Part shown: piece after piece, positions 45,335 through 63,304 of the stretch
Layout of the letters: every line of letters begins with the position of its first letter
Numbering within the stretch: the stretch's first letter is position 1
Source: a virus
Strand: one strand, 5' to 3'
IMG/VR virus record: IMGVR_UViG_3300009151_000043
Span: 31,419 to 95,418 of that record
DNA length: 64,000 nucleotides
The notes under the pieces: model-generated
The model's database searches: none
Told to the model about the DNA's origin: nothing
Seen by the model: only the letters and a program-made list of their open reading frames with translations
Translations under genes and position numbers: made by a program

Positions 45335-45625
45335 TTAACCTTTTGGTGGTGTTGGAGACAGATCTAGCGCTTTAGCTTTTAATGGTGCACCTGTAGGCGC
45401 TCCAGAGCTAGGGTTCGTTATTCCTGGTGACATGGTATTGTTCGACATGGGTGTCGCGTTTATCCTGGCCATGTTGTTGCCTGAGCTTACTTCCGCTGTC
45501 TGTAAATGGTCTGCTGTTTCTGCTGCGGTCGTTCCGCCTCCTCCTCCCCCAGGTGGAGGTGTAATCTGCATCGATGCTTTTTCCATATACCTAGTAAAGT
45601 CCACCAAGATATTTTCTTCTTTCAT
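45335..45625 (-). CDS. Low-complexity P/G/T protein, possibly leaderless
   Basis: 96 aa, FTRYMEKAS then PPPGGGGGG. The ATG lies 6 nt downstream of a TATAAT. Confidence 0.6.
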   Translation of the reverse strand: MKEENILVDFTRYMEKASMQITPPPGGGGGGTTAAETADHLQTAEVSSGNNMARINATPMSNNTMSPGITNPSSGAPTGAPLKAKALDLSPTPPKG

Positions 45626-45631
45626 AGCTTA

Positions 45632-45660
45632 ATTATACATTTAACCCGCCTAGTTATCAA
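45632..45660 (-). promoter_or_regulatory. sigma70-type promoter of the neck operon
   Basis: TTGATA-N17-TATAAT. Confidence 0.75.
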
Positions 45661-45676
45661 GAGGGATATCGACAAC

Positions 45677-45703
45677 AAAAAGGGGGCCCGCAGGCCCCCT
45701 TTT
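45677..45703 (-). terminator. Intrinsic terminator after the major capsid gene
   Basis: GGGGGCC-TGCG-GGCCCCC followed by TTTTT on the minus strand. Confidence 0.85.
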
Positions 45704-45727
45704 ATAGTGTCTTTTACTTTTCTTGCA

Positions 45728-46687
45728 TTAAGCGTTGAAGTCGATCTTCACAACACCCTTCACGTTGCCGATGGCAAGCGAGAGGTTCATGTACTGGAAG
45801 TACTCGAGGAAGTAGGCTTCGTTCTTCATGAACACTGTGAGAGGCTGCAATCTGTAGTACTTGCCGAAGAACTCTTCGGAGGAGAACAGATAGATCACAC
45901 CGTCAGGGACGAGATCGCGCTTGATGGTGTAGATCGGTTTCACGCCCAAGAGAGTCTTGGAAGGAAGTCCATTGACCCACATTTCCTGCGCCATGTCGCC
46001 GCCGACTTCAGAACGACTCATTTTAACGAAGTCATCTGCAGTAACGTTGTTCATCAGCATAACACCCTTTGTTTCTCCGCCGTCTGGCTGAGAAGGACCG
46101 AAAGGTACCCTGAGACGCTTGATGACCTTGAAGGCTTCAGCGACGTTCTCACGAGTGATACCACCACTGATAGTAACATTCTGAGGAAGTCCGAGACCGT
46201 TAAGTGCATTAGCTGTGTTAACTGTGCCGATAACACTGTTAACGCGGGTCATGAAACGTGTATCGATTTCTGTGGCGATGTCCTTTGTGGACAACTCAAG
46301 CATGATCGCACGGATATCATAATCGTAGCTTCTGAGCTGGTCGATGTCCTTGTTGAACTTCGGGCTCGTGATACGTGTGAAGTAGGAAGGATACCGTGTA
46401 CCAGAGAACTGGAACATGTCAGGCACTACACCCAAAGGAATAGTGACGGCAGGAGCAGTATCAGGCTCACGATCGTTCCACTTAACAAGAAGCTCAGGAT
46501 TCTCAGACTTGTCGAGATCATCATTGCTGATGTCGATAGGTGTGATAATCTTTTCTGTGAAGCTTTCTTCACGAAGCTTGTTACGTGTGAAGGACTGTGC
46601 ACTCACAGCTGCTTTCTTTTCTTCACCAGCTTTAACCATTTCAACGAACGTATCGTTGAACACTCTTTGATTAGCGATTTTTTCCAT
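45728..46687 (-). CDS. Major capsid protein (HK97-fold-like)
   Basis: 319 aa with strong C-ending codon bias, followed by a terminator and downstream of the protease and cement genes. FTRITSPKFNKDI..L, DIATEIDTRF and VPDGVIYLF patterns. Confidence 0.8.
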   Translation of the reverse strand: MEKIANQRVFNDTFVEMVKAGEEKKAAVSAQSFTRNKLREESFTEKIITPIDISNDDLDKSENPELLVKWNDREPDTAPAVTIPLGVVPDMFQFSGTRYPSYFTRITSPKFNKDIDQLRSYDYDIRAIMLELSTKDIATEIDTRFMTRVNSVIGTVNTANALNGLGLPQNVTISGGITRENVAEAFKVIKRLRVPFGPSQPDGGETKGVMLMNNVTADDFVKMSRSEVGGDMAQEMWVNGLPSKTLLGVKPIYTIKRDLVPDGVIYLFSSEEFFGKYYRLQPLTVFMKNEAYFLEYFQYMNLSLAIGNVKGVVKIDFNA

Positions 46688-46704
46688 ATATTATGTATCT
46701 AGGT

Positions 46705-47187
46705 TTAGCTGTACAATTTAACTCCGAGCACGGTGATAACACCCTGCACTTTATAACCATTGATCACCTGGGTGACGCCTGGGATTGAGCGGCTGCCTTC
46801 AACCTGGCCGATGACTCTGTCAGATCCTCCAGCTGCCTTAACATTACCTGTACCGGCTTCTGCTGTAAGCAAGTCTCCGAGGCTGTAGCTGGAGGCGTCT
46901 CCAACGAACTTATCGGTTTCGATGACGGATGCGCCATCCAAAGCATACACGCCGATGACTCCAGATTCAATCACGTCACCAGCTGTCTGGCTGTTGATTG
47001 CAAACCCGAGAAGTTCATCTTTAGCTGTAGCTACGCTAGAGCCCTTTTTGACTTCTGTGACTGCACCGTTTGGTTCCAAGCGAACAATCATCCCTGCTTC
47101 GATATTTGCGCCGCTCTCGTTGTTTGGCACCCCAACATAGTTGATTTGGTGCAAACTAAGAGCAGGTCCTTTTTTGAAATTAATCAT
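46705..47187 (-). CDS. Capsid cement/decoration protein
   Basis: 160 aa directly upstream of the MCP, with AGGAG RBS. IEAGMIV..LLGFA..YSLGDLLT..VIGQV is a beta-tulip-like pattern. Confidence 0.65.
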   Translation of the reverse strand: MINFKKGPALSLHQINYVGVPNNESGANIEAGMIVRLEPNGAVTEVKKGSSVATAKDELLGFAINSQTAGDVIESGVIGVYALDGASVIETDKFVGDASSYSLGDLLTAEAGTGNVKAAGGSDRVIGQVEGSRSIPGVTQVINGYKVQGVITVLGVKLYS

Positions 47188-47345
47188 TTTAGTTTTCTCC
47201 TATTTGTTTTGTTTGTTGATTTGTTTTTGAGGTTTTCCTCAGTTTGCTTCAAACCCCGAATTCCGATCAAGGAGAGTTCAGAAATTGTCTGCTGAAAGTT
47301 AATATAGTTATTTTCTTAGAAAATAACTATTTAGTCAATATTATT

Positions 47346-47822
47346 TTAATCGAATAGACTTGGAGTCTCCACGTCCTTCAAATGCTTTTTATGTATCTCA
47401 TCCATGAACGCCTTTTGCTGTTTACCTCCCCCATGAATCATTTTGGCTAAAGCTGCCACCGGAGCGAGTCCGGGCACCATTTCCGCAGCCGAGAGACCTA
47501 CCCCCATGTCACCTGCTGTACCACCAGTATACCTTCTTACTGCCCTAGTTGCTGCCTCGGTCAATGGGCCACCAACAAAAGGGTTCGCTATGTAATGCCC
47601 GAGATGATGTTTGCGATTATAGACAAGACCTTTCAGCTTTTCATCTGCAGCATATCTTGAGGCTGTGTTATCTGCGTCCCATGGACCTATATGCTCTTCC
47701 TCTTTATCCTTATGTTTATCTTTTGCAAATTTTCCTAAAAGCTCTAGAGCCTCCTGTTGGGATACTCCGTATTCACTAGCTCTCTTAACGAATCCAGTGA
47801 TGTATGCTTGTTGTGTGTTCAT
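47346..47822 (-). CDS. Putative internal head protein with N-terminal shared module
   Basis: AYITGFVKRASEYGVSQQEALELLGKFA followed by an unrelated cargo region. Confidence 0.7.
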   Translation of the reverse strand: MNTQQAYITGFVKRASEYGVSQQEALELLGKFAKDKHKDKEEEHIGPWDADNTASRYAADEKLKGLVYNRKHHLGHYIANPFVGGPLTEAATRAVRRYTGGTAGDMGVGLSAAEMVPGLAPVAALAKMIHGGGKQQKAFMDEIHKKHLKDVETPSLFD

Positions 47823-47825
47823 AGA

Positions 47826-48266
47826 TTACTCCTCCTGTTGGGTTAAGCGTTCTTTTAATAATTTTCTTTCAGCCATTTGCTTGGTCAACATATCTACGGG
47901 GGTACCTACACCAGCGCCGACAGCTCCCCCTATAGCTCCGCCTTTCAAGGCTGAAGCTAGCACACTAGCGTTGCCTGAATACGGATTAACTTTACGTGTT
48001 ATCCCGTTCAATAATGAGGCGAGCGCCGCTGCACCTAAGCCCCCTGTAATGGCTCCTGCTCCTGCTCCTGTGTATTTACCTATGTTGCGTGCCAGGTGGG
48101 CGGGAGCTCCTTCTTCGCTCACAGCATCCCCGAGTTCGTCAGTACCAGAATAACCAAAATGAGATGATGCAGACTTAAGTAGCGCAACGGCCTCTTGTTC
48201 GGTGAGGCTGTACATACCGGCTCTTTTTATAAATCCGGCAATAAAACTATCGTCAATATTAGGCAT
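47826..48266 (-). CDS. Putative internal head protein: shared module plus glycine-zipper helices
   Basis: SFIAGFIKRAGMYSLTEQEAVALLKSAS; GAGAGAITGGLG and GGAIGGAVGAGVG. Confidence 0.7.
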   Translation of the reverse strand: MPNIDDSFIAGFIKRAGMYSLTEQEAVALLKSASSHFGYSGTDELGDAVSEEGAPAHLARNIGKYTGAGAGAITGGLGAAALASLLNGITRKVNPYSGNASVLASALKGGAIGGAVGAGVGTPVDMLTKQMAERKLLKERLTQQEE

Positions 48267-48269
48267 AAA

Positions 48270-48662
48270 TTAATCGTCTAGTAGGTTATAACCATTGTCG
48301 TAACCGAAAGCTCTCCTCAGTACAGGATCATCTGACTGCCCAGAGGCCTTTACAGTTGCAGACTTGCCCATATAGGCTACGTCAGCTGCGTTACAAACTC
48401 GCTCAACCACCTTAGCCAGATATTTTGGATCTTCTTTGGCTCTTTTAACGAAAAGAGCTCTTTCATCCTCATCATTAATAAAATCTGAGCTATACATCGC
48501 GTCTGCGGCTTTTTTAATTGCTTGGTCTAGCTCAGTGTTTTTCCTAACCGTTTCTGCTCCCTCTTTAACCTGCAGCGTATGTACTTGCTGTTTAAGCTCT
48601 GCAATCTCTGACAAGGCCACCTTAACAAAGGCTTCAACTTTATGTAGTGCTTGTTTGGTCAT
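48270..48662 (-). CDS. Putative scaffold/core protein (coiled coil)
   Basis: 130 aa; KQA, KVA, KAA, KRA and KSA motifs. Confidence 0.65.
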   Translation of the reverse strand: MTKQALHKVEAFVKVALSEIAELKQQVHTLQVKEGAETVRKNTELDQAIKKAADAMYSSDFINDEDERALFVKRAKEDPKYLAKVVERVCNAADVAYMGKSATVKASGQSDDPVLRRAFGYDNGYNLLDD

Positions 48663-48795: not shown

Positions 48796-48812
48796 CGTTA
48801 TTGTGGCCTGAA

Positions 48813-49727
48813 CTACTTGCTTTCGCCAGTAACCACTTCAGCCTTAAGTCTGTTTAAAACAGTGTCTGCGACAGATGCGGCTAATTTTTCTTGTGTTGCG
48901 AATGCATGTTGCTCGGCTTCTGCCTGCTTAAAGAAAGCCTCATACTCAGCTAATTTAGCGGAAAGCTGCTGGTTTTCAGCAAGCGCTTCCTCCAAGGCGG
49001 CCTGCTTGAGCAATTCGTCAAAATAAGTCGCACCTGCTGTCTCAGCTTCAACAGCTTGCTGCGCTGCTTGTTTTTCTTGCTGCTGGTTATTTTCTAGTTC
49101 TTCAGCAGCTTGAGCAATGAGTACATCAAAATCTCTACGACCTGCTTCTTTCAGCATCTCCAGTTCATCTACAGCAGGAGCTTCGCTAGCGGCCTTCAAC
49201 AGGGCGGCACAGAACTGGCGACCCAACTCGTAAGAGGCTACCTTGGCGGCAAGCTCTTCAACTTCAGCTGCCTTCTTGGCGCTAGCTAAAGGTTTAGAGT
49301 CATCTGTCGATGCTTTCTGGCTATAGTTCTGCTTGTTGTTCTCAGGCTTCACGGCATTCTTGTCGGTCTTTTCCTGGCCATCGCCAACGCTTTCAGATTT
49401 AACAGCGCCTGGCTTGCCGGTGGCGGAGTCCTGAGCTTCAGCTTGTTTACGTAGAATATCTAGAATTTCTGCTCCAAGATTTTCTGCCGTCTTTGTTTTG
49501 GCGAGAGGTTCGGAAGAGTCTTCAGAAGGTTTCTGGGAGTAGCTCTGAGGAACATTTTCAGGACCTACAGAATTCTTATTATAGCCTTCGTGCTCGTCCC
49601 CGACACTAACAGACTTGACGTCTCCTCCGGGTGCTCCGGAGATGTTCTTCTGTGCTTCTTCTGCCTGTTTTTTCACCATTGAATGAAGTTGATTGAGGAC
49701 CTCTGCGTGTTTAGTTAATTTAGCCAT
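48813..49727 (-). CDS. Putative prohead scaffold/core protein with internal duplication
   Basis: 304 aa with AGGAG RBS and its own promoter, an acidic coiled-coil C-terminus, at least 12 K-x-A motifs and two ~65-aa repeats. Confidence 0.7.
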   Translation of the reverse strand: MAKLTKHAEVLNQLHSMVKKQAEEAQKNISGAPGGDVKSVSVGDEHEGYNKNSVGPENVPQSYSQKPSEDSSEPLAKTKTAENLGAEILDILRKQAEAQDSATGKPGAVKSESVGDGQEKTDKNAVKPENNKQNYSQKASTDDSKPLASAKKAAEVEELAAKVASYELGRQFCAALLKAASEAPAVDELEMLKEAGRRDFDVLIAQAAEELENNQQQEKQAAQQAVEAETAGATYFDELLKQAALEEALAENQQLSAKLAEYEAFFKQAEAEQHAFATQEKLAASVADTVLNRLKAEVVTGESK

Positions 49728-49750
49728 GTTATTTACTCCTAATTTTTTAA

Positions 49751-49779: not shown

Positions 49780-49790
49780 TACTTTTATTG

Positions 49791-50528
49791 TTATCTAGAA
49801 TTAAAAGCTTTTGACAAAAAGGTTTGGGTTTGAGCTGGGGAAAGTCCGTAAGCTTGCGCCTGTTTATACACACCTTCAAAATAAGCGTCTTCAGCGGCCT
49901 TAGGCTTAAGGTTGGTGCGGGTGTTCTTGTTGTAGTTGGCTTTCTTGACGGAGGATTGCTTGTTGATAGCTGAAATGGTTTGCGTCAAAGCATTATCATA
50001 CAGGTCAACAGCCTGCTTTACACTCGCTCCTTGCTGTAAGGCGTTGCTGATAAAACCTTCAATGTAACCTGCAGATTTAAGCATGCGGAATGCAGCCATT
50101 TTTTCCGGAGGTAAAGAGGCAGCTGCTTCTGGGGATGCTTCTGGTGAACTACCTAAGTGTCCTTGTATGGCTTGCGCCAAAGCTGCGACGTCTTCTCCTC
50201 CACCTGCCGCCTCTCCCGGATGCTGCATGTTTGAGGAAAGCTCTGTAGCCAATTCTTCCAGTTCTTGTGGGGAAAGCTGGGAAAGAAGGTGCTCGATATC
50301 TCCGCCTCCTTCTCCACCACCCATACCCATACCCATACCCATACCTATTGGTGCGGATTCGTTATGGCCTTCGGCTCCTTCTCCACCACCCATAGCGTGC
50401 TCTAGCATTTCTGCCTGAGGGGCTTCACTTTGTTCATGCGCTGCTTCTGCGGGGTTACCTGGTTCTTCAGCAGCTCTTTTAGACTGTAAGAAATTTGCGA
50501 TTAGGGATTTTGCGTAAGGATGTGACAT
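49791..50528 (-). CDS. Putative head core protein with low-complexity acidic middle and two C-terminal copies of the shared module
   Basis: GYIEGFISNALQQGASVKQAVDL and AYFEGVYKQAQAYGLSPAQTQTFLSKA; GMGMGMGMG tract. Confidence 0.7.
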   Translation of the reverse strand: MSHPYAKSLIANFLQSKRAAEEPGNPAEAAHEQSEAPQAEMLEHAMGGGEGAEGHNESAPIGMGMGMGMGGGEGGGDIEHLLSQLSPQELEELATELSSNMQHPGEAAGGGEDVAALAQAIQGHLGSSPEASPEAAASLPPEKMAAFRMLKSAGYIEGFISNALQQGASVKQAVDLYDNALTQTISAINKQSSVKKANYNKNTRTNLKPKAAEDAYFEGVYKQAQAYGLSPAQTQTFLSKAFNSR

Positions 50529-50580: not shown

Positions 50581-50587
50581 TCTTTTT

Positions 50588-52036
50588 TTATCTATTTTGT
50601 ACTAGTGCGTTAAATATCGTATCTTCGTCTAGTTTATTCTGGCTGGCCATATAGCGAAGAGCTGCCAATTTATACGCAGCATATTCTTTTGCTAAAGTCT
50701 TTACGGCTGATTCTTTAGACATCTCTTTGTCTTCTTCTTTATGCTTTAATTTGGCTATAGGCATTTTCTTAACGATCGTGATGCGCATTATTCTACCATG
50801 TGCGGGCTGGTCAAAAAGCGAATGATTTTCAAAAAGATTCTTCACCATATTCATGATACCTTTGGGCATTATATCAGAATGTGACGGCTCATACTTCTCC
50901 TCATTTAATACATCATCGCCATCTTCTTCAAGCTCAGAAAACATAGAGGGAAGATGTTTTTTTACTTTGCTAAACATCTCGCCTGCCCCTCCCTCCATGC
51001 CTTTAGCTCCGAAAAGATATTTAATAAAGTCTTTAGGAGAAAACACAATACCTTTATCTGCTAGCGCTTTAAGCAGTTTGGCTGGCTCAAAACCTCTAAG
51101 CTCTTCCATGGCACTAGCAGAGATATCGTCTCCGTGGTTTAACTTACCTTTCTGCTCTGCGAGATACTTATCTTTAGAGTCTTTGGGTCCTCCTTCGATA
51201 ACCCCATCAATATGCTTTTCCAGGGCTGCCAGCTTTTTAACCAAAGACCTTTTTTCTGCGGCGTACTTGGATATCTGCAAAAAACTGTCATCGTCAGGAG
51301 CCACAAAACCAGGATAAAGCTCTCTGTAATCTGAAGCTGTTTTAACGTAGCTGCTATCTGAAGCCAGTTTAAGACTCATGCCTATGCGGTCGGCGGGTCT
51401 TCCAACAATAGATAACTCAAACCACTTAGGGTCGATATTGTCCATACTGCACATCTCTCCTCGCTTGTTAATCTCTCCTAGCTTGGAAGGGATGTGTTTG
51501 CAGCGATGGTTATCCGTTTTGGCTTCATGACCGCACCAAGTGCATTTGTCGTAGGCTACTTTAGCTGCCATACTAACATTGATCTGCTTTCCTTCTGCCA
51601 GCTTTTGAAGCTCTTCGGCGCACTTATCGTTATCCATTCCGATAACAAGCTCGATACGCTTCATCTTATCGTTATAGGAAGCTGCTTTGATATTGCCGTA
51701 TTTAGGGTCTTCAGGCTTGTTCTTGTGGTGCCTATTTAAAGCTCTACCATCATAAGAACCATCTTTCCGTTTGCTTCCAGACTTAACGAAAGTTTTGTAA
51801 TGCTGCTTACAGGCAGCTTCTTTAAAAATATCACCATTTCTGTTAGCTCCTGTACCCTCATAAGCCCCCAGAGCAATAACTAGTACGTCTGTCTGTCCGG
51901 CGGTCTTCTCTGCTCTAAGCTCTGAGTTATCTGCACCTGCTTTGGTGAGGGTATTACTGTTATGAATCAACTGTACAGGCTCTATGTCCCAGTTCCAGTC
52001 GTTCGTATCGCTAAATTTAATTAAACCTTTGTACAT
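50588..52036 (-). CDS. Prohead (capsid maturation) protease with zinc-finger insert
   Basis: NRNGDIF, RHH (candidate catalytic His), VSMAA (candidate catalytic Ser), CTWCG..C.H and FELSIV..PAD fit the HK97/herpes-fold prohead protease pattern. Confidence 0.8.
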   Translation of the reverse strand: MYKGLIKFSDTNDWNWDIEPVQLIHNSNTLTKAGADNSELRAEKTAGQTDVLVIALGAYEGTGANRNGDIFKEAACKQHYKTFVKSGSKRKDGSYDGRALNRHHKNKPEDPKYGNIKAASYNDKMKRIELVIGMDNDKCAEELQKLAEGKQINVSMAAKVAYDKCTWCGHEAKTDNHRCKHIPSKLGEINKRGEMCSMDNIDPKWFELSIVGRPADRIGMSLKLASDSSYVKTASDYRELYPGFVAPDDDSFLQISKYAAEKRSLVKKLAALEKHIDGVIEGGPKDSKDKYLAEQKGKLNHGDDISASAMEELRGFEPAKLLKALADKGIVFSPKDFIKYLFGAKGMEGGAGEMFSKVKKHLPSMFSELEEDGDDVLNEEKYEPSHSDIMPKGIMNMVKNLFENHSLFDQPAHGRIMRITIVKKMPIAKLKHKEEDKEMSKESAVKTLAKEYAAYKLAALRYMASQNKLDEDTIFNALVQNR

Positions 52037-54323: not shown

Positions 54324-54749
54324 CTAGTCAATGCGTTGGCCGTGGGGAGAAACCGACATAAGCGCAGACTGTTGTGGGTCAGGTCCTTCAAGACCACGAG
54401 CTATAGGGTCATAAATAGGTCTGGCTAGTGCGTCTCCAAGCATAAATGTGCCAGTATTAGCTGCCATACCCTTTAGACTGAAGGGGTCTTTCATGGCGTC
54501 GACTAAGCCTTTTGTGTGTTTGACTATAGGTGCAGGAATGGCTTTCCCTTTAAATGGCCCCCGCATTATACGCCTACCTGCAGCCAATCTTTCTAAACCT
54601 TTATTAACTCCCCAGTTACTAAGTACGGGTGCGGCAATTCTAATGAGTGTAGGCAGAAAGGCCTCTTTGGTCATACCTAACTCATCAGCCCGTTTAAAAA
54701 TACCGTCAACGAACGCCTGCTCTAGGTTTGGGTCTTCACTATATAGCAT
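54324..54749 (-). CDS. Putative internal head protein with N-terminal shared module
   Basis: AFVDGIFKRADELGMTKEAF followed by amphipathic cargo. Confidence 0.7.
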   Translation of the reverse strand: MLYSEDPNLEQAFVDGIFKRADELGMTKEAFLPTLIRIAAPVLSNWGVNKGLERLAAGRRIMRGPFKGKAIPAPIVKHTKGLVDAMKDPFSLKGMAANTGTFMLGDALARPIYDPIARGLEGPDPQQSALMSVSPHGQRID

Positions 54750-55147: not shown

Positions 55148-56641
55148 TTAAAATCTAAAGTTGTTAGTTTCTCCTTTATTGAATTCGTGCGTCATTACTC
55201 GATGTTTCAACATTCCTGTGTCCAGCTTAGTCATCATGTCTGCGTCAAATTTACTCAATGCTTGTGTAGCTAGCATTGCTCGCAACTCGGCGCGTACAAC
55301 TTCTTTTTGTTTTGATACTTCCGGAGAAAGTCTCAAGATTTGCTCGTAGGCTCTAACCACCTTGGCTTTATTAGCTTTCGATATGATCGGATCCGTGATC
55401 ATCAACTCCTGCAAAAGCAGCTTACGCTCCATGTTCTCTAGAGTTAGATTAGGTTTTTTAGGGGCAGCCTTAAACCCGTGGGAAAAAGCTTCTGATATAG
55501 GATGCTGTATCAAATCCTCAAAAACAGAGCCGAAGCCGAAGGCTTCTTTATCCATAGCTTCTTTCAGTACAGGATCTTTGTCATACTTCTCTGCTACAGA
55601 ATACTCAGGATCTTTTACTTTTTTTTTAATCTCTGCCAATACAGGATCCATAGCTTGATCATCTGCGTCTTCTTCGTCGGGCTTATCTGCAGCTTTTTTA
55701 TATGAAGACACGCGGTCGAGTACACAATTACAGCCTTTTTTAGGTCTACCTACAGTACAGCCACATTCAGGACATTTAGCATCGTGCCAGTGTTTGCCTA
55801 GTTCACCTTTCGCCTCCTTGAGGTAGCCTGCCTCAAAGGCACGAAAGTCATTAACCTCTTCAGCTTTTTTAGCTGTCTCGATATATTCCTCCGCAGCTTT
55901 CATTAAATTATCAAACAAAGAGGCTTCTTTGCATGTTTCAAACATCATATAGCCTGCGTCATGCACACCTCTTTCTTCTTTAGGTGCAGCCGTCTTATGC
56001 AGCAGCTCTAGGTATGGCAATGAAGCCTCGCCATGTTTTGCGAACACCTGGGACTCGAACTCTTCAAAAGCCGTGCGATAAGCAGCTTCTTTTTTAAATT
56101 CATCTGCAAGAGCAGAGAACTGGTAATTAAGGTCGAGCTCCGCAGCCACTTTTTCAACTTCAGCCAGTTCGGCATCTTTTTCGAGTTTCTTGATATAGTT
56201 GGAAGACTTGCTGTATACGGTGTCGAAAGTCGTGTCGTACTTGTCGTGAGCTTCCTTGGCTCCGGCGATCTCAAGGAAAGCCTGCTTATATGTAGGGTTA
56301 CTGAGCATCCTGTTGTAGTTGAAAACTACATCGGTACTCTCGTCGCCGGGGAAGTGCTCTGAGATATACTCAGAGGCTGTTTTTTCAGCTACAGTAAATA
56401 CGTCTTGAATTACCTTAGGAATATCTGCGATCTCAAATTCTGTAGAACGATCGGAAGCTGTTTTAAAATGTTTATAATGTAGTGCAACATTGAGAGCTTC
56501 TCCTGTACGTTGAATATAGTTGGGGTTTAGATCCAAATCGTTAGCTACCTTATGCAACGCAGCTGTTGGAGACATACCTTCGTTGACCTTTTGCACGGCA
56601 TCGCTCAGTGCAGTTTTGATGAGAATGTTGGGCTCTTCCAT
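55148..56641 (-). CDS. Putative head core protein, K-x-A-rich
   Basis: 497 aa, helical, with at least 14 K-x-A motifs and a small CPECGC..GCNC cluster. Confidence 0.7.
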   Translation of the reverse strand: MEEPNILIKTALSDAVQKVNEGMSPTAALHKVANDLDLNPNYIQRTGEALNVALHYKHFKTASDRSTEFEIADIPKVIQDVFTVAEKTASEYISEHFPGDESTDVVFNYNRMLSNPTYKQAFLEIAGAKEAHDKYDTTFDTVYSKSSNYIKKLEKDAELAEVEKVAAELDLNYQFSALADEFKKEAAYRTAFEEFESQVFAKHGEASLPYLELLHKTAAPKEERGVHDAGYMMFETCKEASLFDNLMKAAEEYIETAKKAEEVNDFRAFEAGYLKEAKGELGKHWHDAKCPECGCTVGRPKKGCNCVLDRVSSYKKAADKPDEEDADDQAMDPVLAEIKKKVKDPEYSVAEKYDKDPVLKEAMDKEAFGFGSVFEDLIQHPISEAFSHGFKAAPKKPNLTLENMERKLLLQELMITDPIISKANKAKVVRAYEQILRLSPEVSKQKEVVRAELRAMLATQALSKFDADMMTKLDTGMLKHRVMTHEFNKGETNNFRF

Positions 56642-56683: not shown

Positions 56684-57772
56684 TTCCGTAATTAGCTTAT
56701 ATTCTGGCAGGACGTTTTCTTTAAGGGCTAGCTGAGAGATCATTTCAATAGCCATAATGTCTTCATCCTGGATGCCTGTGTTATAATCGGTGCGTTCATT
56801 TACAATCCTATTTGTACTAGCGTCTAGATTTCTGACCTTGGCTCTGAAGTAGCTGATCTCTTCTTTCTTTATAAAGAACGAAGCTAGATTATTTATGACC
56901 GAATTGTATGCTAGAGCATCCTTCTTGTCTTCTATAGAGAAGTACAGTGAAGTCACATTATCCAGCATCGAGTCTGCCAGATAACCGTTTAGTTTATCTT
57001 TCTCCCCCTCTGTTAAACTAGAAGGATCTGCTTCTGCTTTTAGGCCTAGTTCCCCTAAGGAGCCGATTATTTTAAAATACCTGCGGTCAACATCACTAAT
57101 AATATTGTTATCAGCCAGCTGGGTAAAATAAGCTGCTCTAGCTACAACGTCTGTAGGGGCGTTTGTGAAATCGAAAAACAATTCTCTTAACGCTCTTATC
57201 TGAGAGGGAAGTAGTTTGTGTCTATGCGCAATTACAGCGTCAGATAGTCCTGCAAATATTGAGTAGCCTATGACGCAAAAATTTCTCGAGTGTTCCGTTG
57301 AGTTTCTGTACTTTACAGCAAAGTCATAAGCTTTCGAATATTTGATCTTTATGACGTGGTATAGGAAGTTTCTAAGTGGTAGGTCTGCTATAAGTGAAAT
57401 GTATTTCCCACTCCAGACCTCGACCTTCTCTTCTTTGTAAGACGGGACAAATACCTTTTTATCGCCAGCCTGCCGTAACTTCTTGTTGAACAGCTTGAGT
57501 AAAAGGTCCTTCTGAGTCAACGTCAACCTGGCTAAAGCCTTTTTAAAGAAGCTGGTGAACGAAAATTGTATAGCGGCTCCTTCTGTGATCTCCTCATGGT
57601 CCATCATGTAGCGTACAAGCGCAGAGGAACCGTCCTTTAATTTTCTGCGACAGTAAGCTAAATTGGCTCTCTGAGGCTCCAGATAAACAAGATACCGCCA
57701 ATTTGGAAAATTATAGAATGAGCCTACTTGGTTAAGCCTTATCGCTGATAATTGGCGTTTGTGTGTTTTCAT
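56675..57772 (-). CDS. Hypothetical protein, 365 aa (basic N-half, acidic C-half)
   Basis: Long ORF overlapping the upstream gene by 41 nt; no motif recognised. Confidence 0.7.
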   Translation of the reverse strand: MKTHKRQLSAIRLNQVGSFYNFPNWRYLVYLEPQRANLAYCRRKLKDGSSALVRYMMDHEEITEGAAIQFSFTSFFKKALARLTLTQKDLLLKLFNKKLRQAGDKKVFVPSYKEEKVEVWSGKYISLIADLPLRNFLYHVIKIKYSKAYDFAVKYRNSTEHSRNFCVIGYSIFAGLSDAVIAHRHKLLPSQIRALRELFFDFTNAPTDVVARAAYFTQLADNNIISDVDRRYFKIIGSLGELGLKAEADPSSLTEGEKDKLNGYLADSMLDNVTSLYFSIEDKKDALAYNSVINNLASFFIKKEEISYFRAKVRNLDASTNRIVNERTDYNTGIQDEDIMAIEMISQLALKENVLPEYKLITELI

Positions 57773-58715
57773 CTAATTTTTTAGTGAAGGCTCCGGAGAC
57801 TAAACCTAACCCAGCTCCCCACTTGGCGGCGTTACTAGCATCTCTGCTTACTTCTTGCCGCAGCATTGGAGCGATTCCTTCTGTAATAGGTCTCCTGGTT
57901 AATATATTTTTTGCTCCGTAGCCTAAAGCTTTTACTGCTGCCGGTAGGAATGCCCCTGACACACCTGAGGCTAAGCCTAGTCCAGCCCCAAGAGCAGAGT
58001 TTGTCAGTATTTGCGCCTTTCTTGATTGTGGTGGAGATCTGTCTAGGTCTTGATTCTTAAGTACGCTTAGCATGCCTGCAGCCGGTAAACTGGTCAGCTG
58101 TGGCTGTTCCTCCATAACTTTTTGAGCATCCTCTAAAGATTTGTCTGAAACTCGGTAGCCTCTAGATACAAGAGGAACTAGTGCCCCGTGAGCTGCCCCT
58201 AGCCCAGCTCCCAGTAGTCCTTCGTGGAGGGTTTCTTTCGCTGCCTCTCTAGCTAGCCCAGGAGTTTTAATCATGTTCCTGATTGCCTCCACAGGAGCTA
58301 TGGGAGATTGCCATTTGGATCCGCCTGCTGGCAGCTTTTTCATCGGGCTTCTGGCCCCGAGTAATTTAAATAATCCAGCTATACCTAAGCTAGGTAAAAA
58401 AGCAGCCAACCCTAAGTCTTTTGCTCCGGAGAGTACTTTTTTACCCAAGCCTGACTTTTCGTCTCTTGTCGCTTTTATACGTGCGACGGCTTGAGCTATT
58501 TGATGCCTACGTTCTACAGGATCTTTAGATATGATTACTTGTGAGGGTAGAACATCTTTTATTATAGGGGTAACTGCTCTCGCTGGTCCGGGGAGATCTT
58601 CCAATATGTCTGTCAGTCCATACTTTTTGGGTTGCGCCATGAACATATGCTCACGCAACAGATGTATAGCTGCCAACCTATTAGCATAAGAGTTATTTTG
58701 ATCTTCGGGAAGCAT
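57732..58715 (-). CDS. Glycine-zipper membrane-active protein (putative ejection protein)
   Basis: Repeated GAGLG helices (GLLGAGLGAAHG, ALGAGLGLASG, WGAGLGLVSG). Confidence 0.65.
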   Translation of the reverse strand: MLPEDQNNSYANRLAAIHLLREHMFMAQPKKYGLTDILEDLPGPARAVTPIIKDVLPSQVIISKDPVERRHQIAQAVARIKATRDEKSGLGKKVLSGAKDLGLAAFLPSLGIAGLFKLLGARSPMKKLPAGGSKWQSPIAPVEAIRNMIKTPGLAREAAKETLHEGLLGAGLGAAHGALVPLVSRGYRVSDKSLEDAQKVMEEQPQLTSLPAAGMLSVLKNQDLDRSPPQSRKAQILTNSALGAGLGLASGVSGAFLPAAVKALGYGAKNILTRRPITEGIAPMLRQEVSRDASNAAKWGAGLGLVSGAFTKKLDENTQTPIISDKA

Positions 58716-58726: not shown

Positions 58727-60979
58727 TTAAATCTCCATGCCGTCTTCTTTAGTCATGTTGATAGAAAGTTCTGGAGACTTACGTTTGAGGAAGATAACTA
58801 GATCTCCCATATTCTTGAATACGCTCGTAACCAACTCCACAAGCTCTGGCAAATCGCCACGACCATACATTTCTTTAAACTTGTCTGTCTCCCAATGGAG
58901 CAGGAATATAATTCTGCCTAACCTATCCATCGACTCCACAATAGATGGTAAGTATTCAGAGATCTTATCGCCAACACTCACATACTTGGCTAGTGCGCCT
59001 ATCATATGTGTATCAAAGATTTCTTTCTGCCCGTTTTGGGCTAGCTGCACAGCTTGTGTGACATACTGAGGATCAACTCCTTTAATTTCAGGCATTGTAC
59101 CCAAGTCTTGTCTGGTTGGGTTACCTGTGTAGCTGTCCATAGTAGGTAAACTATTTTCCTGCCCAACACCTACAGTAGTCTGCTGCCCAAACTCATTTGT
59201 GTACGGCTGCTCTTCAAAAGGCTGAGGGTAGATGTCTCCTGTGTAGGCTAGCTTAACGTGACCTTTCTTGGAGAAGCCTGGTACAAGACTATCGATAAGA
59301 TCTGACCCTACCTTCTCATCAAGCCCCAAATCCGTAACCATCGCTATTTTGGCTTTAATAGGGTCTTCGTATTTCTTTTTGGCTCCGTTGATGTCTACGA
59401 AATACTCGCTACCGTTCGTATGTACAGTCATAGGGAACACGTTCTTGTCCCTAAGCATACCGTGCAACGTGCCTGGGTATCCTGGCTCTCCACGCACAAG
59501 CTTTTCTTTTTCTTCCTCGGCCTCGCGCTTACGCTTGTCCTGATCCTCTTTATCCTGTTTGGATAATGAACTATCTGGGTACATAGGCATAGTGTGCCTT
59601 GCGTGGTCGGCTGGGGTAATCTTCAACAGCTTGTATCCAGCTGGAACATACAGCATCTTATCTTTGTATTCAAAACGATCACCCTGTTTCTTTGTCATCA
59701 CCAGCATTATTTCCTGCATCTTTTTAGGGTGATCGTAATAGTTGCCTCTGGGGAGATCATGTACGCTGCCGGGTTTATCCCATTTGCCTCCTTTGTCTCC
59801 TCGATCGCACCAGTTGGCTTCGCTGTACGGCTCTACAGAAATTCTTCTGATCCCTGAAGCGTCTTTGAAGTTAGCGTTGATGCGGAATGGTTGAGTGGCT
59901 TTTAAATTTTCATTAATCAGAATATAGGTATTCGTGTAGCCTGGTTTACCTTCTGCAGCATCCACCATCATCTTATGGATGACTGAGTAGTCGTTTACTT
60001 TGATCTGGTCTTTGATGAAGACTCCTTTGTGATCTTTGATGTACGTCGTGCCCTCCTTTGAGTCTAGATCGACTACTAGTGTGTCATCTGTAGCAAAGTC
60101 CTGCTGCAGCTGCTTTGGGCGAACAATAAGTAGACCGTAGCGTAAACCACCCATTTTGGTCACATAAGAGTAAAAACCAGATTCACTAGGGTTGGTGAAC
60201 TTCTTAAGATAGTCCACAGCGCCAAAAGTAGATTTTTGGTTAGGCTCACGATCGTCTACAATCACATAACCCTGAGTAAGCAGTGTTTCTTTATCGGACT
60301 GTGTGAGCTTTTTAACCTCGTCTTTGTCGCTAGGTTTTACGACTTTAACAAGCTCGATCTTCTTTGCAGCTGTGTCAGACTTACGGTACTTGTCCCCGTC
60401 TTCCAAGGCAATGGCTTTGGCCACCTTCTCTAGAGTGTAAAAGCGTAACAAAGACTCACAGAACTCCGCATCTTTCTCAATAAGCTCGCTAAAGGCTTTC
60501 TTTGTAGCGTTGTCTGAGTCTTCCACATAGTCCAATACAGAAGCAATGGCGTATCTGCCTGTACGGGGAGGAACACTCATCTGCCTATAATCGCCTTGGG
60601 TGGCGTCCCGCATGATGTCTGTTCTACTTTCTTTAGAGTTTTCTCCCAGGCCCAACAATTCATCTTTAATAAACATGTCAGCAAAATCCTCGTTTAAAGG
60701 ATAGAATTGCTCATTGTTCTTACTATACAAAAGATCAAGGGTTTTAACCTTACCATTAATAAAAAATGCCGGAACAAACAAGATTTGGCCGTTCTTGGAC
60801 CTAAATCCGAAAACCCCTAGAGCCTTGGTATTGTCTTCGTTCTTTTTAACGATTTCAAAACCTACAAGGAAAGGAATCAAATTTTTAAGCGTATCTTGCA
60901 GTTTTTGATAGGCCAACTGAAAGAACGCGCCCTCAATTTGGTCGTCAGCGGCTATTTTTGGTAAAGTTGTATTGCGCAT
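58727..60979 (-). CDS. Hypothetical 750-aa virion/head-associated protein
   Basis: Long ORF with its own promoter; LPKIAA at the N-terminus, plus EKVA and VKLA. Confidence 0.7.
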   Translation of the reverse strand: MRNTTLPKIAADDQIEGAFFQLAYQKLQDTLKNLIPFLVGFEIVKKNEDNTKALGVFGFRSKNGQILFVPAFFINGKVKTLDLLYSKNNEQFYPLNEDFADMFIKDELLGLGENSKESRTDIMRDATQGDYRQMSVPPRTGRYAIASVLDYVEDSDNATKKAFSELIEKDAEFCESLLRFYTLEKVAKAIALEDGDKYRKSDTAAKKIELVKVVKPSDKDEVKKLTQSDKETLLTQGYVIVDDREPNQKSTFGAVDYLKKFTNPSESGFYSYVTKMGGLRYGLLIVRPKQLQQDFATDDTLVVDLDSKEGTTYIKDHKGVFIKDQIKVNDYSVIHKMMVDAAEGKPGYTNTYILINENLKATQPFRINANFKDASGIRRISVEPYSEANWCDRGDKGGKWDKPGSVHDLPRGNYYDHPKKMQEIMLVMTKKQGDRFEYKDKMLYVPAGYKLLKITPADHARHTMPMYPDSSLSKQDKEDQDKRKREAEEEKEKLVRGEPGYPGTLHGMLRDKNVFPMTVHTNGSEYFVDINGAKKKYEDPIKAKIAMVTDLGLDEKVGSDLIDSLVPGFSKKGHVKLAYTGDIYPQPFEEQPYTNEFGQQTTVGVGQENSLPTMDSYTGNPTRQDLGTMPEIKGVDPQYVTQAVQLAQNGQKEIFDTHMIGALAKYVSVGDKISEYLPSIVESMDRLGRIIFLLHWETDKFKEMYGRGDLPELVELVTSVFKNMGDLVIFLKRKSPELSINMTKEDGMEI

Positions 60980-61003
60980 AGTAAATTCTCTGAGATTTAA
61001 TCC

Positions 61004-61032
61004 ATTTTATTGATTTTTTCCTTGTATATCAA
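61004..61032 (-). promoter_or_regulatory. sigma70-type promoter
   Basis: TTGATA-N17-TAAAAT. Confidence 0.65.
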
Positions 61033-61046
61033 GAACCATCTCTACT

Positions 61047-62897
61047 TTAATCCTTCAGACCAAACCCTACACCATAAGCAAGTCCAGGTATCGGACTAGG
61101 TCCTTTGGTGTCTGATGTGGAGCCTTTGTTAACCATATTAACAAACCGTTTAGCCAGGTTAGTACTGTTGAGTACATGCATCCAGTCGGTGTGGTGTTCA
61201 GGGATGTCCACAAGACGTACCATCGCCGGTTCAAAATGTGGGTGCTCATCATGCACTAGCGCAGCCTCTATATCGTGCTCTTTCAGCTCATCAATTACGG
61301 CTGAGGTAATTTTTGTACCTATAGTGTAATGTAATTCTGGTTTTTCTAGATATTTTCCATACGCCAAGTCTAGTCTCAAGTGTTTCGCATCACTTCTGGG
61401 GACATAGTCTTTCTCTATAGCTGAGTAGGATACTACCTGATCTGGTGAGTAGTCCCCTATGCCGTTAGGGTCTGTGATACGTACATGGTCAATAGCTGCC
61501 TTAGCTATCAACTCGAAATTTCTACGGTTTACAGGAAGACTACTGTCATCAAAGGCTTTTTTCATCGCCTGCATATAATACCTCCGACCTTCACCGATCC
61601 CTTTAAGATGTACAACTTCTCTAGGGTCTATTAACCCTGAGCTTAGTACCTGCCCCTGCTCTACGCGCTGCCCTAGTTTAACTTTAGGTTCCTGATCTAT
61701 ACCTACGTAGTGTTCTATATTATTAACAGATATAAAATGCCCTCCTGCTGCAGCAGGGTCTAGCTTTGTGATTATTCCGTCTTCTTGCGCTAGCGGAGCT
61801 TTACCAATAAACGTTTTAGGTACGTTAGCTAGCTGATTGATTAGTTTGAACCCTTGCTGTCCTCCTAGGCTAGTCGCTGCTCCTCCAGAGTGTCTGGCCT
61901 TCATCGCACTTTCTGTAAGTGGTTCAGCCACTGCAGTGCCTGCCACCAACCCAACATAACTATCCATGGCGGCCATACCCTTTTCGCGTCTACCTACACA
62001 CATCTGACAGAGCCCGCCTGAATGATGTTTTTTGTTGGACTGACAAGTCATGGGTGAGCGAATAACGATATTCTTTACCCCCTTATGCTCCAGATCATTT
62101 AGCATCTTGGAAGAGATCTCATTATTCCTGTTATACCCAGAAACAGCCTTAGCCAAATAAGCTCCTACAGATTCTCGATCTTTTACAGGCATACTGATAC
62201 CGTTGGCTGTGTCACAATCTGCCTCTACTATCTGCAGAGGCATCAATGCTCGGGCAAACTGCTTCGAGCCATATCCTCCCTGCGCCACAGATATTTTTTT
62301 AAGTACTTCGCCAGAGCGTGTACCAAAAGATGTGGTTAAATACTCTGGGAGCGTCAACCCTTCAGCATAGGAGCTTTTAATCGGTATATCCATCTTCGGC
62401 TTACCGTCCGCATCGACCACAATTCCTTGGGTAGTTATCGTACCTCTATACTGCGAGGGAGACCCTCGAGAACCTGCCAAAATAATTTTGGCTAAAGATT
62501 TATTTTCTTTTAACCCGATAGCGAGAATATCTTTTTCAATATTCTGCATCATGTCGTTATAATGCTCGAAAATCTTATTGTCCTTTACACTCTTGGATTC
62601 TTTGCCGGCTTCTACAGCGTCTTTAAATGCTTCAAACTTATTCCACAGTTTATCTTTGTCTATAGGTGACACTAGATCCTTCAATGTTAAAGAGGTGCCC
62701 TGCCGTGTAGCCACTTCAAAACCCAGTTTTGTAAGATCAGAAACTATTTTAGCGTACTCGCCAGGGGCTTTATCGGCCAGCTCGGCAAAGAGTTTAGCTA
62801 TACCCTTTTTGTCTAAAAGTGTATTGTCTACAAGATGATGAAATTGAGTAGGTATAAAAAACTTTAACATTACCTGCCCAACGGTAGTGGTAGCCAT
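61047..62897 (-). CDS. rpoC: DNA-directed RNA polymerase beta' subunit, C-terminal half (split, RpoC2-like)
   Basis: TTVGQ, AGSRGS..Q, bridge helix PIKSSYAEGLTLPEY...GGY, zinc site DC..RSPMTC..CQMCVG, trigger loop AEPLTESAMKARHSGG. No NADFDGD motif. Confidence 0.9.
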   Translation of the reverse strand: MATTTVGQVMLKFFIPTQFHHLVDNTLLDKKGIAKLFAELADKAPGEYAKIVSDLTKLGFEVATRQGTSLTLKDLVSPIDKDKLWNKFEAFKDAVEAGKESKSVKDNKIFEHYNDMMQNIEKDILAIGLKENKSLAKIILAGSRGSPSQYRGTITTQGIVVDADGKPKMDIPIKSSYAEGLTLPEYLTTSFGTRSGEVLKKISVAQGGYGSKQFARALMPLQIVEADCDTANGISMPVKDRESVGAYLAKAVSGYNRNNEISSKMLNDLEHKGVKNIVIRSPMTCQSNKKHHSGGLCQMCVGRREKGMAAMDSYVGLVAGTAVAEPLTESAMKARHSGGAATSLGGQQGFKLINQLANVPKTFIGKAPLAQEDGIITKLDPAAAGGHFISVNNIEHYVGIDQEPKVKLGQRVEQGQVLSSGLIDPREVVHLKGIGEGRRYYMQAMKKAFDDSSLPVNRRNFELIAKAAIDHVRITDPNGIGDYSPDQVVSYSAIEKDYVPRSDAKHLRLDLAYGKYLEKPELHYTIGTKITSAVIDELKEHDIEAALVHDEHPHFEPAMVRLVDIPEHHTDWMHVLNSTNLAKRFVNMVNKGSTSDTKGPSPIPGLAYGVGFGLKD

Positions 62898-62899
62898 TA

Positions 62900-63304
62900 T
62901 TAAGCTTGTTTAAGTTTTTTACGGAGTAGATCAAAAAGAGAAGCATGCTTCTGGTTATTAGGATTGTCTCCAAAAGCTTGGGTGGTAGCCATGTCCACGT
63001 TATTGTGCTGCTGATCCTCAGGGACATTCACCTCTTCCTTCTCTTTCTGTAATTGATTTAGCACATCCAGCTCTTTGAAAGCTGGAGACATTAAATTACC
63101 TTCAAGATTCTCAGAAGACTGCTGGTCAGGGGTACTCATCGTGATCTCGTTGTCGTCGAGATCTTCTTCCTCACCGTTGTTGACTGTACCTGTGTCTTTT
63201 AGATCGTTAGCTAACTTATCTTTGATAAAGCAGGCTGCGTCATAGCTTGGGTCCCCTTTCTCAAAGGAGCCCAAATATGCTGCCAGCTTTGTGAAGTCGA
63301 TCAT
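62900..63304 (-). CDS. Acidic hypothetical protein with K-x-A motifs at both termini
   Basis: MIDFTKLAA...QKHASLFDLLRKKLKQA. Confidence 0.7.
   Translation of the reverse strand: MIDFTKLAAYLGSFEKGDPSYDAACFIKDKLANDLKDTGTVNNGEEEDLDDNEITMSTPDQQSSENLEGNLMSPAFKELDVLNQLQKEKEEVNVPEDQQHNNVDMATTQAFGDNPNNQKHASLFDLLRKKLKQA

Follow-up and report, generated by a model that had tools for sequence, protein, structure and literature searches.

A Lys-x-Ala motif as candidate cleavage signal of the prohead protease in a large uncultured freshwater phage and its relatives

The head proteins of a large uncultured freshwater phage carry the tripeptide Lys-x-Ala (K-x-A) far more often than expected. The phage's own prohead serine protease probably recognizes a longer signature, hydrophobic-x-Lys-x-Ala with Ser, Ala or Glu next, and would cut after the Ala. 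The code is likely to represent a new specificity for a known kind of enzyme. The window analysed is a 64,000-nucleotide stretch of the phage genome, to which all positions refer, and all features described here lie on its minus strand. A sequence-only reading had proposed the motif as K-x-A(A/S/E), of which the K-x-A part stands while the full signature proved longer, and had quoted the peptides MEKIAN, MTKQAL, MAKLTKHAE, LIKTAL, LPKIAA, FTKLAA and LEKTAI, all of which are present in the genes to which it assigned them. Its suggestion that K-x-A is a candidate protease specificity gains support from the fold of the protease, the sites at its domain borders, the spread of the motif through the family, its avoidance in certain head proteins and a T4 control, from which we infer cleavage.

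Expected counts for each protein were obtained from within-protein shuffles. Eight proteins together contain 83 K-x-A where about 28 would be expected (z 10.9), and z remains at 10.6–11.4 when shuffling is confined to blocks of 10 or 20 residues. When every gapped residue pair was scanned without bias, the head set gave K.A as its leading pair (103 vs 58, z 6.6), with the two Glu motifs [LI].E and [SAG].E both outside the top ranks, and the same scan of the tail set gave nothing comparable to K.A. The comparison of head with tail proteins that the earlier reading had recommended thus gave enrichment over composition in the head proteins, and none of the tail proteins is enriched relative to its own shuffles. 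As that reading had remarked, the motif often lies close to the N-terminus: 10 of 22 head-module proteins have one that starts no later than residue 15, compared with 4 of 65 others (Fisher p 9e-5). The extended forms K.A[SAEDGN] and [LIVMF].K.A reach z 14.6 and 11.2, respectively. Tested in the same proteins, A.K, R.A, K.G, K.S, KA and K..A showed no enrichment, nor did K.V, E.A or Q.A. At the nucleotide level, the coding frame has 83 AAR-NNN-GCN and the two other frames have 8 and 7, and the synonymous codons for K-x-A are used proportionally. Because only the coding frame shows the excess and A-x-K, R-x-A, KA and K-x-x-A are flat, the excess is a protein-level signal. As a control, the same scan of T4 gp67, gp68, gp21 and gp22 recovered I.E (z 4.3) and L.E (z 3.8), and the count of the known code in T4 gp22 (16 vs 5.7) equals in magnitude that of K-x-A in the 304-aa protein described below.

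The protease gene sits amid scaffold-like genes, 4 kb upstream of the major capsid protein gene, in a head-morphogenesis module, and Salmonella phage Arash and Vibrio phage D69 have identical gene order around the protease. The acidic (pI 4.8), helical scaffold-like protein of 304 aa (48813..49727), with MAKLTKHAE at its N-terminus, contains 15 K-x-A (5.3 expected, z 5.0), and the 497-aa head-module protein (55148..56641), which includes LIKTAL, contains 19 (6.2 expected, z 5.7), somewhat above the minimum of 12 and 14 copies counted originally. Cutting of the 304-aa protein at every motif is predicted to yield fragments of 8–59 residues plus a 1-residue piece from two overlapping sites; nine of the sites are retained in at least 11 of 13 orthologues, all 13 of which have 12–22 K-x-A vs 4–8 expected. 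Orthologues of the 497-aa protein have 11–18 vs 3.5–5.5 expected. The partial gene at the window start, also flagged at the outset, is the 3' part (2..559) of a gene that extends past that edge and lies apart from the head cluster; its 354-aa acidic product (pI 4.6) has 14 K-x-A vs 2.2 expected (z 8.7), followed by E, S, D or A. Self-comparison of the 304-aa and 354-aa proteins found no internal repeats.

Among the smaller proteins, that of 130 aa (48270..48662), starting M-T-K-Q-A (MTKQAL), has 6 K-x-A vs 1.9 expected, and its orthologues have 5–9 vs about 2. The 245-aa protein (49791..50528) has 7 vs 2.1 expected, and an internal copy of a G-Y-I-E-G-F module starts immediately after its K151-S-A, a site that 12 of 12 orthologues retain and that reads K-T-A then A-Y-Y-E-G in them. 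Two small proteins of 158 and 146 aa (47346..48266) carry an N-terminal module (A/F)(Y/F)(I/V)-x-G-F-x-K-R-A, a third copy of which was located at 54324..54749 by a six-frame pattern search, and the module-bearing N-termini are paralogous (E 1e-5 and 2e-4). The 134-aa acidic protein (62900..63304) has 4 vs 0.9 expected (z 3.5), with F-T-K-L-A-A at residues 4–9. The 750-aa head protein (58727..60979), with L-P-K-I-A-A at its N-terminus, has 7 vs 3.9 expected (about 2-fold; 5–11 vs about 4.5 in orthologues), and conservation in it is 0.92 for motif K and A, compared with 0.67 for other K and 0.63 for other A.

The major capsid protein (319 aa, 45728..46687) matches Arash gp226 ('major capsid protein') over its full length with 28% identity (E 9e-34). 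It contains three K-x-A in total, none beyond the first 27 residues, and the candidate sites K3-I-A5 and K24-K-A26 (residues 22–28, 46604..46624) are each kept in 13 of 13 orthologues. The sequence-only reading had picked out MEKIA, which holds as a site but is not the sole one, since the site kept out to Arash is K24-K-A26, aligned there to K27-E-A29. Two basic head proteins avoid the motif. The 754-aa protein (52039..54303, pI 9.7) has an N-terminal L-E-K-T-A (LEKTAI) site and is otherwise poor in K-x-A, with 4 vs 7.7 expected (0–6 vs 3–8 in orthologues), and the Ala-rich 327-aa protein (57732..58715) has none vs 3.3 expected, its orthologues (n=12, 23–40% identity) containing 2 in all vs about 35 expected. 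Combined, the two proteins have 4 vs 11.1 expected (P 0.0075).

The prohead protease (482 aa, 50588..52036) comprises an N-terminal leader, a catalytic domain, a K-x-A-rich linker and a helical C-terminal part. It matches PHROG 18299 'head maturation protease' at E 9e-9; a Pfam search up to E 0.01, in which Peptidase_S77, S78 and S21 were sought, and a search of PDB sequences gave no match, and similarity to gp21 is undetectable at the sequence level. The structure model has a pLDDT of 81.6, rising above 90 over residues 44–222. VIA-align of the model gave T4 gp21 at Z 11.2 (rmsd 2.8, 129 residues; model residues 44..213 on gp21 residues 23..172), the VZV protease at Z 9.5 and the HCMV protease at Z 7.2, with the best unrelated match at Z 5.3, and the Foldseek list is headed by the EBV, PrV, KSHV and HCMV proteases. 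As judged from the model, the protein has the fold of T4 gp21 and herpesvirus assemblin (MEROPS clan SH). The catalytic domain spans residues 47–222 (51371..51898) and contains the predicted catalytic residues His104 (51725..51727) and Ser155 (51572..51574), both invariant in 111 of 111 family members (30–57% identity), as well as an invariant Cys cluster.

On the leader side, the site A-E-K44-T-A46 followed by G47 (51896..51913) adjoins the first strand of the domain, and K-x-A is found there in 11 of 14 orthologues. A second leader site, around K32 (residues 29–36, 51932..51949), lies in a disordered segment of low model confidence; across the wide family K32 is kept in 111 of 111 members and A34 in 107 of 111 with a variable middle residue, and in the subclade of the window phage the site reads K-A-G, not K-x-A. 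The protease has 11 K-x-A vs 5.5 expected, four of them at residues 223–270, where the earlier reading had noticed LKLAS, VKTAS, SKYAA and KKLAA just after the catalytic domain. These four, K223-L-A and K232-T-A, each followed by S, and K257-Y-A and K268-L-A, each followed by A, occupy a post-domain linker (residues 223–271, 51224..51370) that is the predicted release region. The pLDDT is low over linker residues 227–247, the K223 and K257 sites are each kept in 14 of 14 orthologues, and the family consensus at the domain end is L-x-K-(V/A)-A-S. By alignment, candidate K-x-A sites flank the catalytic domain at both borders family-wide. Conserved K-x-A also occur within the folded core, at K117, K138 and K159, so that not every K-x-A can be a site; core instances such as K117-A-A119 are probably structural and uncut, and the original proposal of cutting after K-x-A is supported overall with this restriction.

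Positional conservation in orthologues, another comparison recommended earlier, places the motif residues above others of their kind: 0.775 for motif K vs 0.622 for other K (p 6e-5) and 0.741 for motif A vs 0.524 for other A (p 3e-6), and the middle residue (0.576) does not differ significantly from the background (0.616). These alignments indicate that purifying selection acts on the K and A of the motif only. The excess is present in every orthologue over a range of protease identity from 79% to 44%, with the counts in orthologues not being phylogenetically independent, and also in unalignable head proteins of Arash and D69 (protease identity 28–29%). In these two phages the logo is sharper, with L/M at P5, E at P4, then K, x, A and S, and of the 71 sites 29 have Ser after the Ala, which is a 5-fold excess at what would be the position after the cut. 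Some Arash and D69 proteins are built of repeated units with two K-x-A per unit. The enrichment recurs in Bacillus phage G, and in 150 diverse representatives of the protease family K.A totals 1597 vs 549 expected (ratio 2.91), with z >2 in 86%, while the Glu codes are flat ([LI].E ratio 1.15, [SAG].E ratio 0.95).

T4 gp21 (PDB 5jbl) has the same fold and the same order of His and Ser (H85/S140 vs H104/S155 here), with a spacing of 55 residues compared with 51. Both proteases are encoded in the head module. In each system a P3-x-P1 tripeptide saturates the scaffold, and the respective motif closes short N-terminal leaders, here predicted ones and in T4 the capsid-targeting sequence. The T4 sites in gp22, gp67, gp68, gp21, gp23, gp24 and the internal proteins are (L/I)-x-Glu, however, whereas those here are Lys-x-Ala, and gp21 has 212 aa whereas the present enzyme has 482, with a long C-terminal part and an invariant Cys cluster in its domain. 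The T4, phiKZ and SPN3US proteases cut after x-x-Glu, as mapped by semi-tryptic mass spectrometry for the latter two, and phiKZ gp175 and SPN3US gp245 act on many head proteins and cleave themselves at the C-terminus, with additional sites lying inside propeptides (PMC5694885). The phages encoding these two enzymes are likewise large and possess virion RNA polymerase subunits, but the cleavage sites are (S/A/G)-x-Glu and A-x-Glu, respectively, whereas here [SAG].E is at expectation and K-x-A sites are predicted. The P3-x-P1 layout is common to the known codes of this protease clan. Herpesvirus assemblin (UL26/UL80, MEROPS S21), which shares the fold, cleaves after x-x-Ala before Ser, with the consensus (V/L/I)-x-A then S. 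In the phage motif P3 is Lys rather than aliphatic, the hydrophobic preference is at P5, Ala or Glu is predicted to be accepted at P1' as well, and many sites are predicted per substrate, compared with one or two in herpesviruses. In herpesviruses the protease precedes a scaffold-like part to which it is fused, and a release site lies where the domain ends (PMC4498786). A similar arrangement may hold for the phage enzyme, whose domain runs to residue 222 and is succeeded first by a low-confidence linker containing four K-x-A and then by a helical C-terminal part.

K-x-A could instead be a docking or assembly motif, for example one by which core proteins contact the shell, the portal or the C-terminal part of the protease. 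Its conservation, its restriction to the head module and its occurrence across the family are compatible with such a role without any hydrolysis, and the 28-aa module bearing K-R-A resembles a folded or binding element. We consider docking unlikely, as one would not expect from it 15–19 copies per protein at irregular spacings of 8–59 residues, placement in disordered segments at both protease-domain borders, an extreme N-terminal position in 10 proteins or purging from other head proteins, and the statistics parallel those of the proven T4 cleavage code. It is likewise improbable that the motif directs proteolysis at another bond, after or upstream of the Lys, or by another protease of host or phage. 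Sequence does not reveal the scissile position, many proteases cut at Lys, and the K is the most invariant position; yet R.A is flat in these Lys-rich phages, so the requirement is not merely for a basic residue, the Ala at +2 is conserved as strongly as the Lys, the S/A/E bias after the Ala fits a P1' position, and in the 245-aa orthologues K-T-A abuts the start of a module with which stand-alone proteins begin. The motif also co-occurs with this protease family in the 150 representatives.

It seems very improbable that amino-acid composition, the periodicity of helices, internal repeats or some signal in the DNA could account for the excess. The enriched proteins are indeed K- and A-rich and predicted to be helical, and the repeated units of some Arash and D69 proteins hold two K-x-A each, but this reading was rejected on the persistence of the signal under block shuffling. 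The patterns KA, K..A and A.K of equal composition are flat, no enriched window protein shows off-diagonal self-matches, the signal is limited to the coding frame with proportional codon use, and the helical T4 core proteins lack a K.A excess. It is just as hard to credit that K-x-A marks a Lys modified or cross-linked during head maturation. The Lys is invariant in a fixed short context, and covalent Lys chemistry occurs in other capsids, such as the isopeptide bonds of HK97, but copies of the motif accumulate in leaders and scaffold-like proteins, not in the body of the mature shell protein, no modifying enzyme was identified, and avoidance in retained proteins suits destruction better.

For cleavage by the prohead protease, we infer the cutting itself, the bond cut and the order of events, whereas the statistics, conservation, fold, site placement and family-wide spread of the motif are observed. 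Analogy with the related enzymes and the small or acidic residue after the Ala suggest the scissile bond. The protease and the acidic scaffold-like proteins (304, 497, 354, 130 and 245 aa) would be assembled into the prohead core, after which the protease would release its own catalytic domain through the border K-x-A, after A46 and after A225 and later sites. The core proteins would next be cut at intervals of roughly 20 residues, giving peptides of a size that can exit the shell. The capsid protein (after A26, possibly A5 too) and the 134-, 750- and 754-aa proteins would lose short leaders. The motif would have been purged where chains need to stay intact in the head, namely in the 327-aa protein and in the main part of the 754-aa one. 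We found no paper describing a Lys-x-Ala rule for a head protease; the Arash virion proteome paper gives coverage values only, many of 80–100%, without a peptide list or a semi-specific search, and the phage G multi-omics paper contains no cleavage mapping.

At 50% identity the protease family falls into no fewer than 2,395 clusters, with Arash, Vibrio D69 and megaphage G among the phages represented. On balance, we favour the view that this family, which is very large and comes mostly from uncultured tailed phages, uses a second cleavage language, with Lys at P3 and Ala at P1, nearer to that of herpesvirus assemblin than to that of T4, and that this language shapes whole head proteomes, with core proteins saturated and retained internal proteins purged. 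If this is true, the mature virion proteome, the propeptides and the cargo would be predictable from sequence for thousands of uncultured phages.

The motif Lys-x-Ala (K-x-A) occurs in the head proteins of this virus well above expectation. All of the peptides quoted in the sequence-only reading (MEKIAN, LPKIAA and the others) were found in the sequences, and within-protein shuffles bore out its claims of at least 12 copies in the 304-aa protein (15 observed, 5.3 expected), at least 14 in the 497-aa protein (19 and 6.2) and a K-x-A-rich partial gene at the window start (2..559, minus strand; 354-aa protein, 14 and 2.2). The same shuffles gave 7 copies against 2.1 expected for the 245-aa protein, 6 against 1.9 for the 130-aa protein, 4 against 0.9 for the 134-aa protein and 11 against 5.5 for the 482-aa protease (50588..52036, minus strand). 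A comparison with tail proteins, which that reading had proposed, showed the head proteins to be enriched, whereas the tail proteins had no K-x-A excess over shuffles. When all 400 residue pairs were scanned without bias at gaps of 0–3, K.A ranked highest in the head set (103 versus 58, z 6.6), with K..E and K...D next, and the tail set contained no pair comparable to it. As a positive control, the same scan of T4 gp67, gp68, gp21 and gp22 returned I.E (z 4.3) and L.E (z 3.8) as top pairs, I/L-x-E being the established T4 gp21 code; gp22 scored 16 versus 5.7, and K.A was not in excess in these proteins. Outside the window, a 683-aa replication-arm protein encoded 16–18 kb before its start (G000:C1 13188–15239, minus strand) has 12 copies versus 5.0 (z 3.3) and is possibly a further packaged or processed product of a gene away from the head module.

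That the excess is a compositional artefact is firmly excluded. With eight proteins pooled, K.A was found 83 times versus 28 (z 10.9), and local composition was rejected as the cause by shuffling within 10- or 20-residue blocks, which preserves it and left z at 10.6–11.4. Under block shuffles KA, A.K and K..A were at expectation, and the pooled test showed no enrichment of R.A, K.G, K.S, K.V, E.A or Q.A. A DNA-level motif was likewise rejected, since the coding frame contains 83 copies of AAR-NNN-GCN and the other two frames 8 and 7, and the Lys and Ala codons of the motif are used in proportion to overall Lys and Ala codon usage. Internal repeats were sought in the enriched proteins and found in none, which rejects them as the source.

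The window (bases 31419–95418) belongs to a 95.4-kb linear IMG/VR virus record estimated to be about half complete; within it the minus strand carries all structural genes, and ARAGORN detected neither tRNA nor tmRNA over positions 1–64000. The tail module encodes an ORF of 4062 aa, one of five successive tail/baseplate-region genes (3765–19874, minus strand) that share a similar N-terminus of about 20 aa, L-x-x-N-x-L-x-x-Y-P-(F/L/I). The head module encodes, as a separate protein, the C-terminal half of RNA polymerase beta' (61047..62897, minus strand), whose homologue in Salmonella phage Arash, gp216, is among the most abundant proteins of the Arash virion proteome, which fits a packaged polymerase. 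The same head module is present on related uncultured contigs of about 75–205 kb, along which protease identity falls from 79% to 44%. By protease, the closest cultured phages are Vibrio phages D69, D148 and D181 and Salmonella phage Arash (28–29% identity), with Bacillus phage G, Rhodococcus phage Finch and two Gordonia phages farther away; no cultured phage was matched by the head region in megablast.

Conservation of the motif in orthologues, a check suggested with the original claim, was measured in alignments of seven orthogroups of 13–15 sequences each. The motif Lys was conserved at 0.775 versus 0.622 for other Lys of the same proteins (p 6e-5) and the motif Ala at 0.741 versus 0.524 for other Ala (p 3e-6), and the middle residue was no more conserved than background (0.576 versus 0.616). 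Judged by these alignments, selection can be taken to act on the K-x-A motif. All orthologues of the protease and of the 130-, 304- and 497-aa proteins keep a 2–4-fold excess, and enrichment (z 3.5–5.1) is also seen in Arash and D69 head-module proteins that are unalignable with those of the window. In phage G, K.A is the top gap-1 pair and the protease gp19 has 8 copies versus 2.4. Across 150 representatives of the protease family K.A was enriched 2.9-fold, with z >2 in 86%, and the Glu motifs of T4 and phiKZ were flat. The head module of the high-GC actinophage Finch (L023), which encodes a related protease, is enriched in R.A rather than K.A (36 versus 21, z 3.9); this suggests that Arg can stand in for Lys in GC-rich genomes at the position three residues before the proposed cut (P3). 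Two basic head proteins have few copies: twelve orthologues of the 327-aa protein (23–40% identity) contain 2 K-x-A in total versus about 35 expected, members of the 754-aa orthogroup have 0–6 versus 3–8 expected, and the two window proteins together have 4 versus 11.1 (P 0.0075).

The 482-aa protein has a PHROG match (18299, "head maturation protease") and none among Pfam models. When the protease profile and the major capsid protein (MCP) were searched against PDB sequences, only chance matches came back. A profile-free exhaustive search collected 2,395 cluster representatives of the protease at E up to 1e-3. A domain model of the protease, whose catalytic domain spans residues 47–222, was built on 111 of these representatives; it had a pLDDT of 81.6, above 90 across residues 44–222, and supersedes a full-length model (pLDDT 61) with weak gp21 matches. 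The best structural match of the domain model was T4 gp21 (Z 11.2, rmsd 2.8 over 129 residues), followed by the VZV (Z 9.5) and HCMV (Z 7.2) proteases, with the first unrelated chain at 5.3; the top Foldseek entries were herpesvirus proteases and gp21, with weak E-values. His104 and Ser155 are invariant (111/111), and their order and spacing resemble those of His85 and Ser140 in T4 gp21. Cys165, Cys168 and Cys179 are also invariant in the 111 members (C-x-x-C ... C-x-H, residues 165–181; 51494–51544, minus strand), and from this pattern the cluster looks like a small metal-binding insert in a gp21-type domain. In four protease homologues of 760–1268 aa (P0124, P0125, P0130 and P0138), the catalytic domain is interrupted by one or two inteins that carry LAGLIDADG homing endonucleases; the insertion points lie around query residues 60 and 158, the second of them adjoining the catalytic Ser155. 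Inteins typically sit in essential catalytic cores.

K-x-A sites flank this domain. In the wide family Lys32 (111/111) and Ala34 (107/111) are conserved around a free residue 33, in a leader modeled with low confidence immediately N-terminal of the domain, and the domain ends in the consensus L-x-K-(V/A)-A-S. The window protease has K-A-G at the position of the family leader site and carries a second site, K44-T-A46, which adjoins the first strand of the domain. The copies noted earlier just past the catalytic domain are present, K223-L-A225 followed by Ser being found in 14/14 orthologues, with three further K-x-A in the disordered linker that follows. This placement is the layout of self-releasing proteases of the gp21/assemblin clan, in which SPN3US gp245 cleaves its own C-terminus (PMC5694885) and the protease and scaffold parts of herpesvirus UL26 are separated by a release site (PMC4498786).

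Among the candidate substrates, the 319-aa protein is the MCP (full-length 28% identity to Arash gp226, E 9e-34). K24-K-A26 of this protein and K27-E-A29 of Arash gp226 fall at exactly the same alignment position, and because this is the conserved capsid site a 26-residue propeptide is predicted; the MEKIA site singled out previously is present as quoted but conserved among closer relatives only. The N-terminal placement of K-x-A was upheld more generally, with a copy starting within the first 15 residues in 10/22 head-module proteins versus 4/65 others (p 9e-5). As happens to T4 gp22, the acidic 304-, 354- and 497-aa proteins are predicted to be cut to pieces; these would be about 8–60 residues long, except that the C-terminal piece of the 497-aa protein would have 104. 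A module of about 28 aa, (A/F)(Y/F)(I/V)-x-G-F-x-(K/E)-R-A-x-x-x-G-x-x-x-x-E-A, forms the N-terminus of three small proteins, encoded at 47346–48266 and 54324–54749 (minus strand); a further copy (50049–50084, minus strand) lies within the 245-aa protein, where a K-x-A comes shortly before it. This module may be a cargo-loading tag. In orthologues of the 245-aa protein, K-T-A is followed directly by the module start, A-Y-Y-E-G-V-x-E-R-A; a leader cut at the internal K-R-A, as in a T4 CTS, is weakened by their having E-R-A there and K-T-A ahead of the module.

When the sites are aligned, P5 is hydrophobic and P4 frequently Glu; Lys, a residue of any kind and Ala come next, followed by Ser/Ala/Glu and then often Asp/Glu (K.A[SAEDGN] z 14.6; [LIVMF].K.A z 11.2). 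The logo from Arash and D69 is sharper, with L/M/I at P5 in 54/71, Glu at P4 in 27/71 and Ser after Ala in 29/71. The most economical reading, and in our judgment a probable one, makes hydrophobic-x-Lys-x-Ala the signal at which this family of proteases cleaves, with Ala as the last residue before the cut. The proposal that the protease cuts after K-x-A is supported by all computational tests available, and from these we infer cleavage. The motif could instead be a docking site, mark a lysine modification, or direct a cut at another scissile bond or by another protease; of the four rivals considered, only the compositional artefact is firmly excluded. The bond after Ala is favored because a P3-x-P1 layout is common to the T4, phiKZ/SPN3US and herpesvirus codes, because a small or acidic residue comes next, and because K-T-A in the 245-aa orthologues directly precedes a module that begins stand-alone small proteins. 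The Arash virion proteome (paper and supplement) gives coverage values, much at 80–100%, and no peptide-level data, and the phage G multi-omics paper contains no mapping of cleavage or protein ends.

The prohead proteases of T4, phiKZ, 201phi2-1 and SPN3US, which have the gp21/assemblin fold, all cleave after Glu (PMC5694885). Unlike these Glu-specific enzymes, the code proposed here would be Ala-specific and Lys-directed. Herpesvirus cleavage sites have Ala at P1. Our full-text literature search found no paper describing a Lys-x-Ala cleavage rule, and on the sequence evidence Lys-x-Ala is quite likely a new specificity of a known kind of protease. Phages already in culture, namely Arash (Salmonella), D69 (Vibrio) and phage G, allow the code to be tested immediately. 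If true, the code would let propeptides, scaffold proteins and packaged cargo be annotated by rule from sequence alone in a large group of 120–500-kb phages whose head proteins are otherwise unannotated, and would account for the avoidance of the motif in retained internal proteins. It would also mean that specificity is plastic in the ancient gp21/assemblin protease clan and that some phage enzymes have retained or regained a herpesvirus-like Ala at P1.
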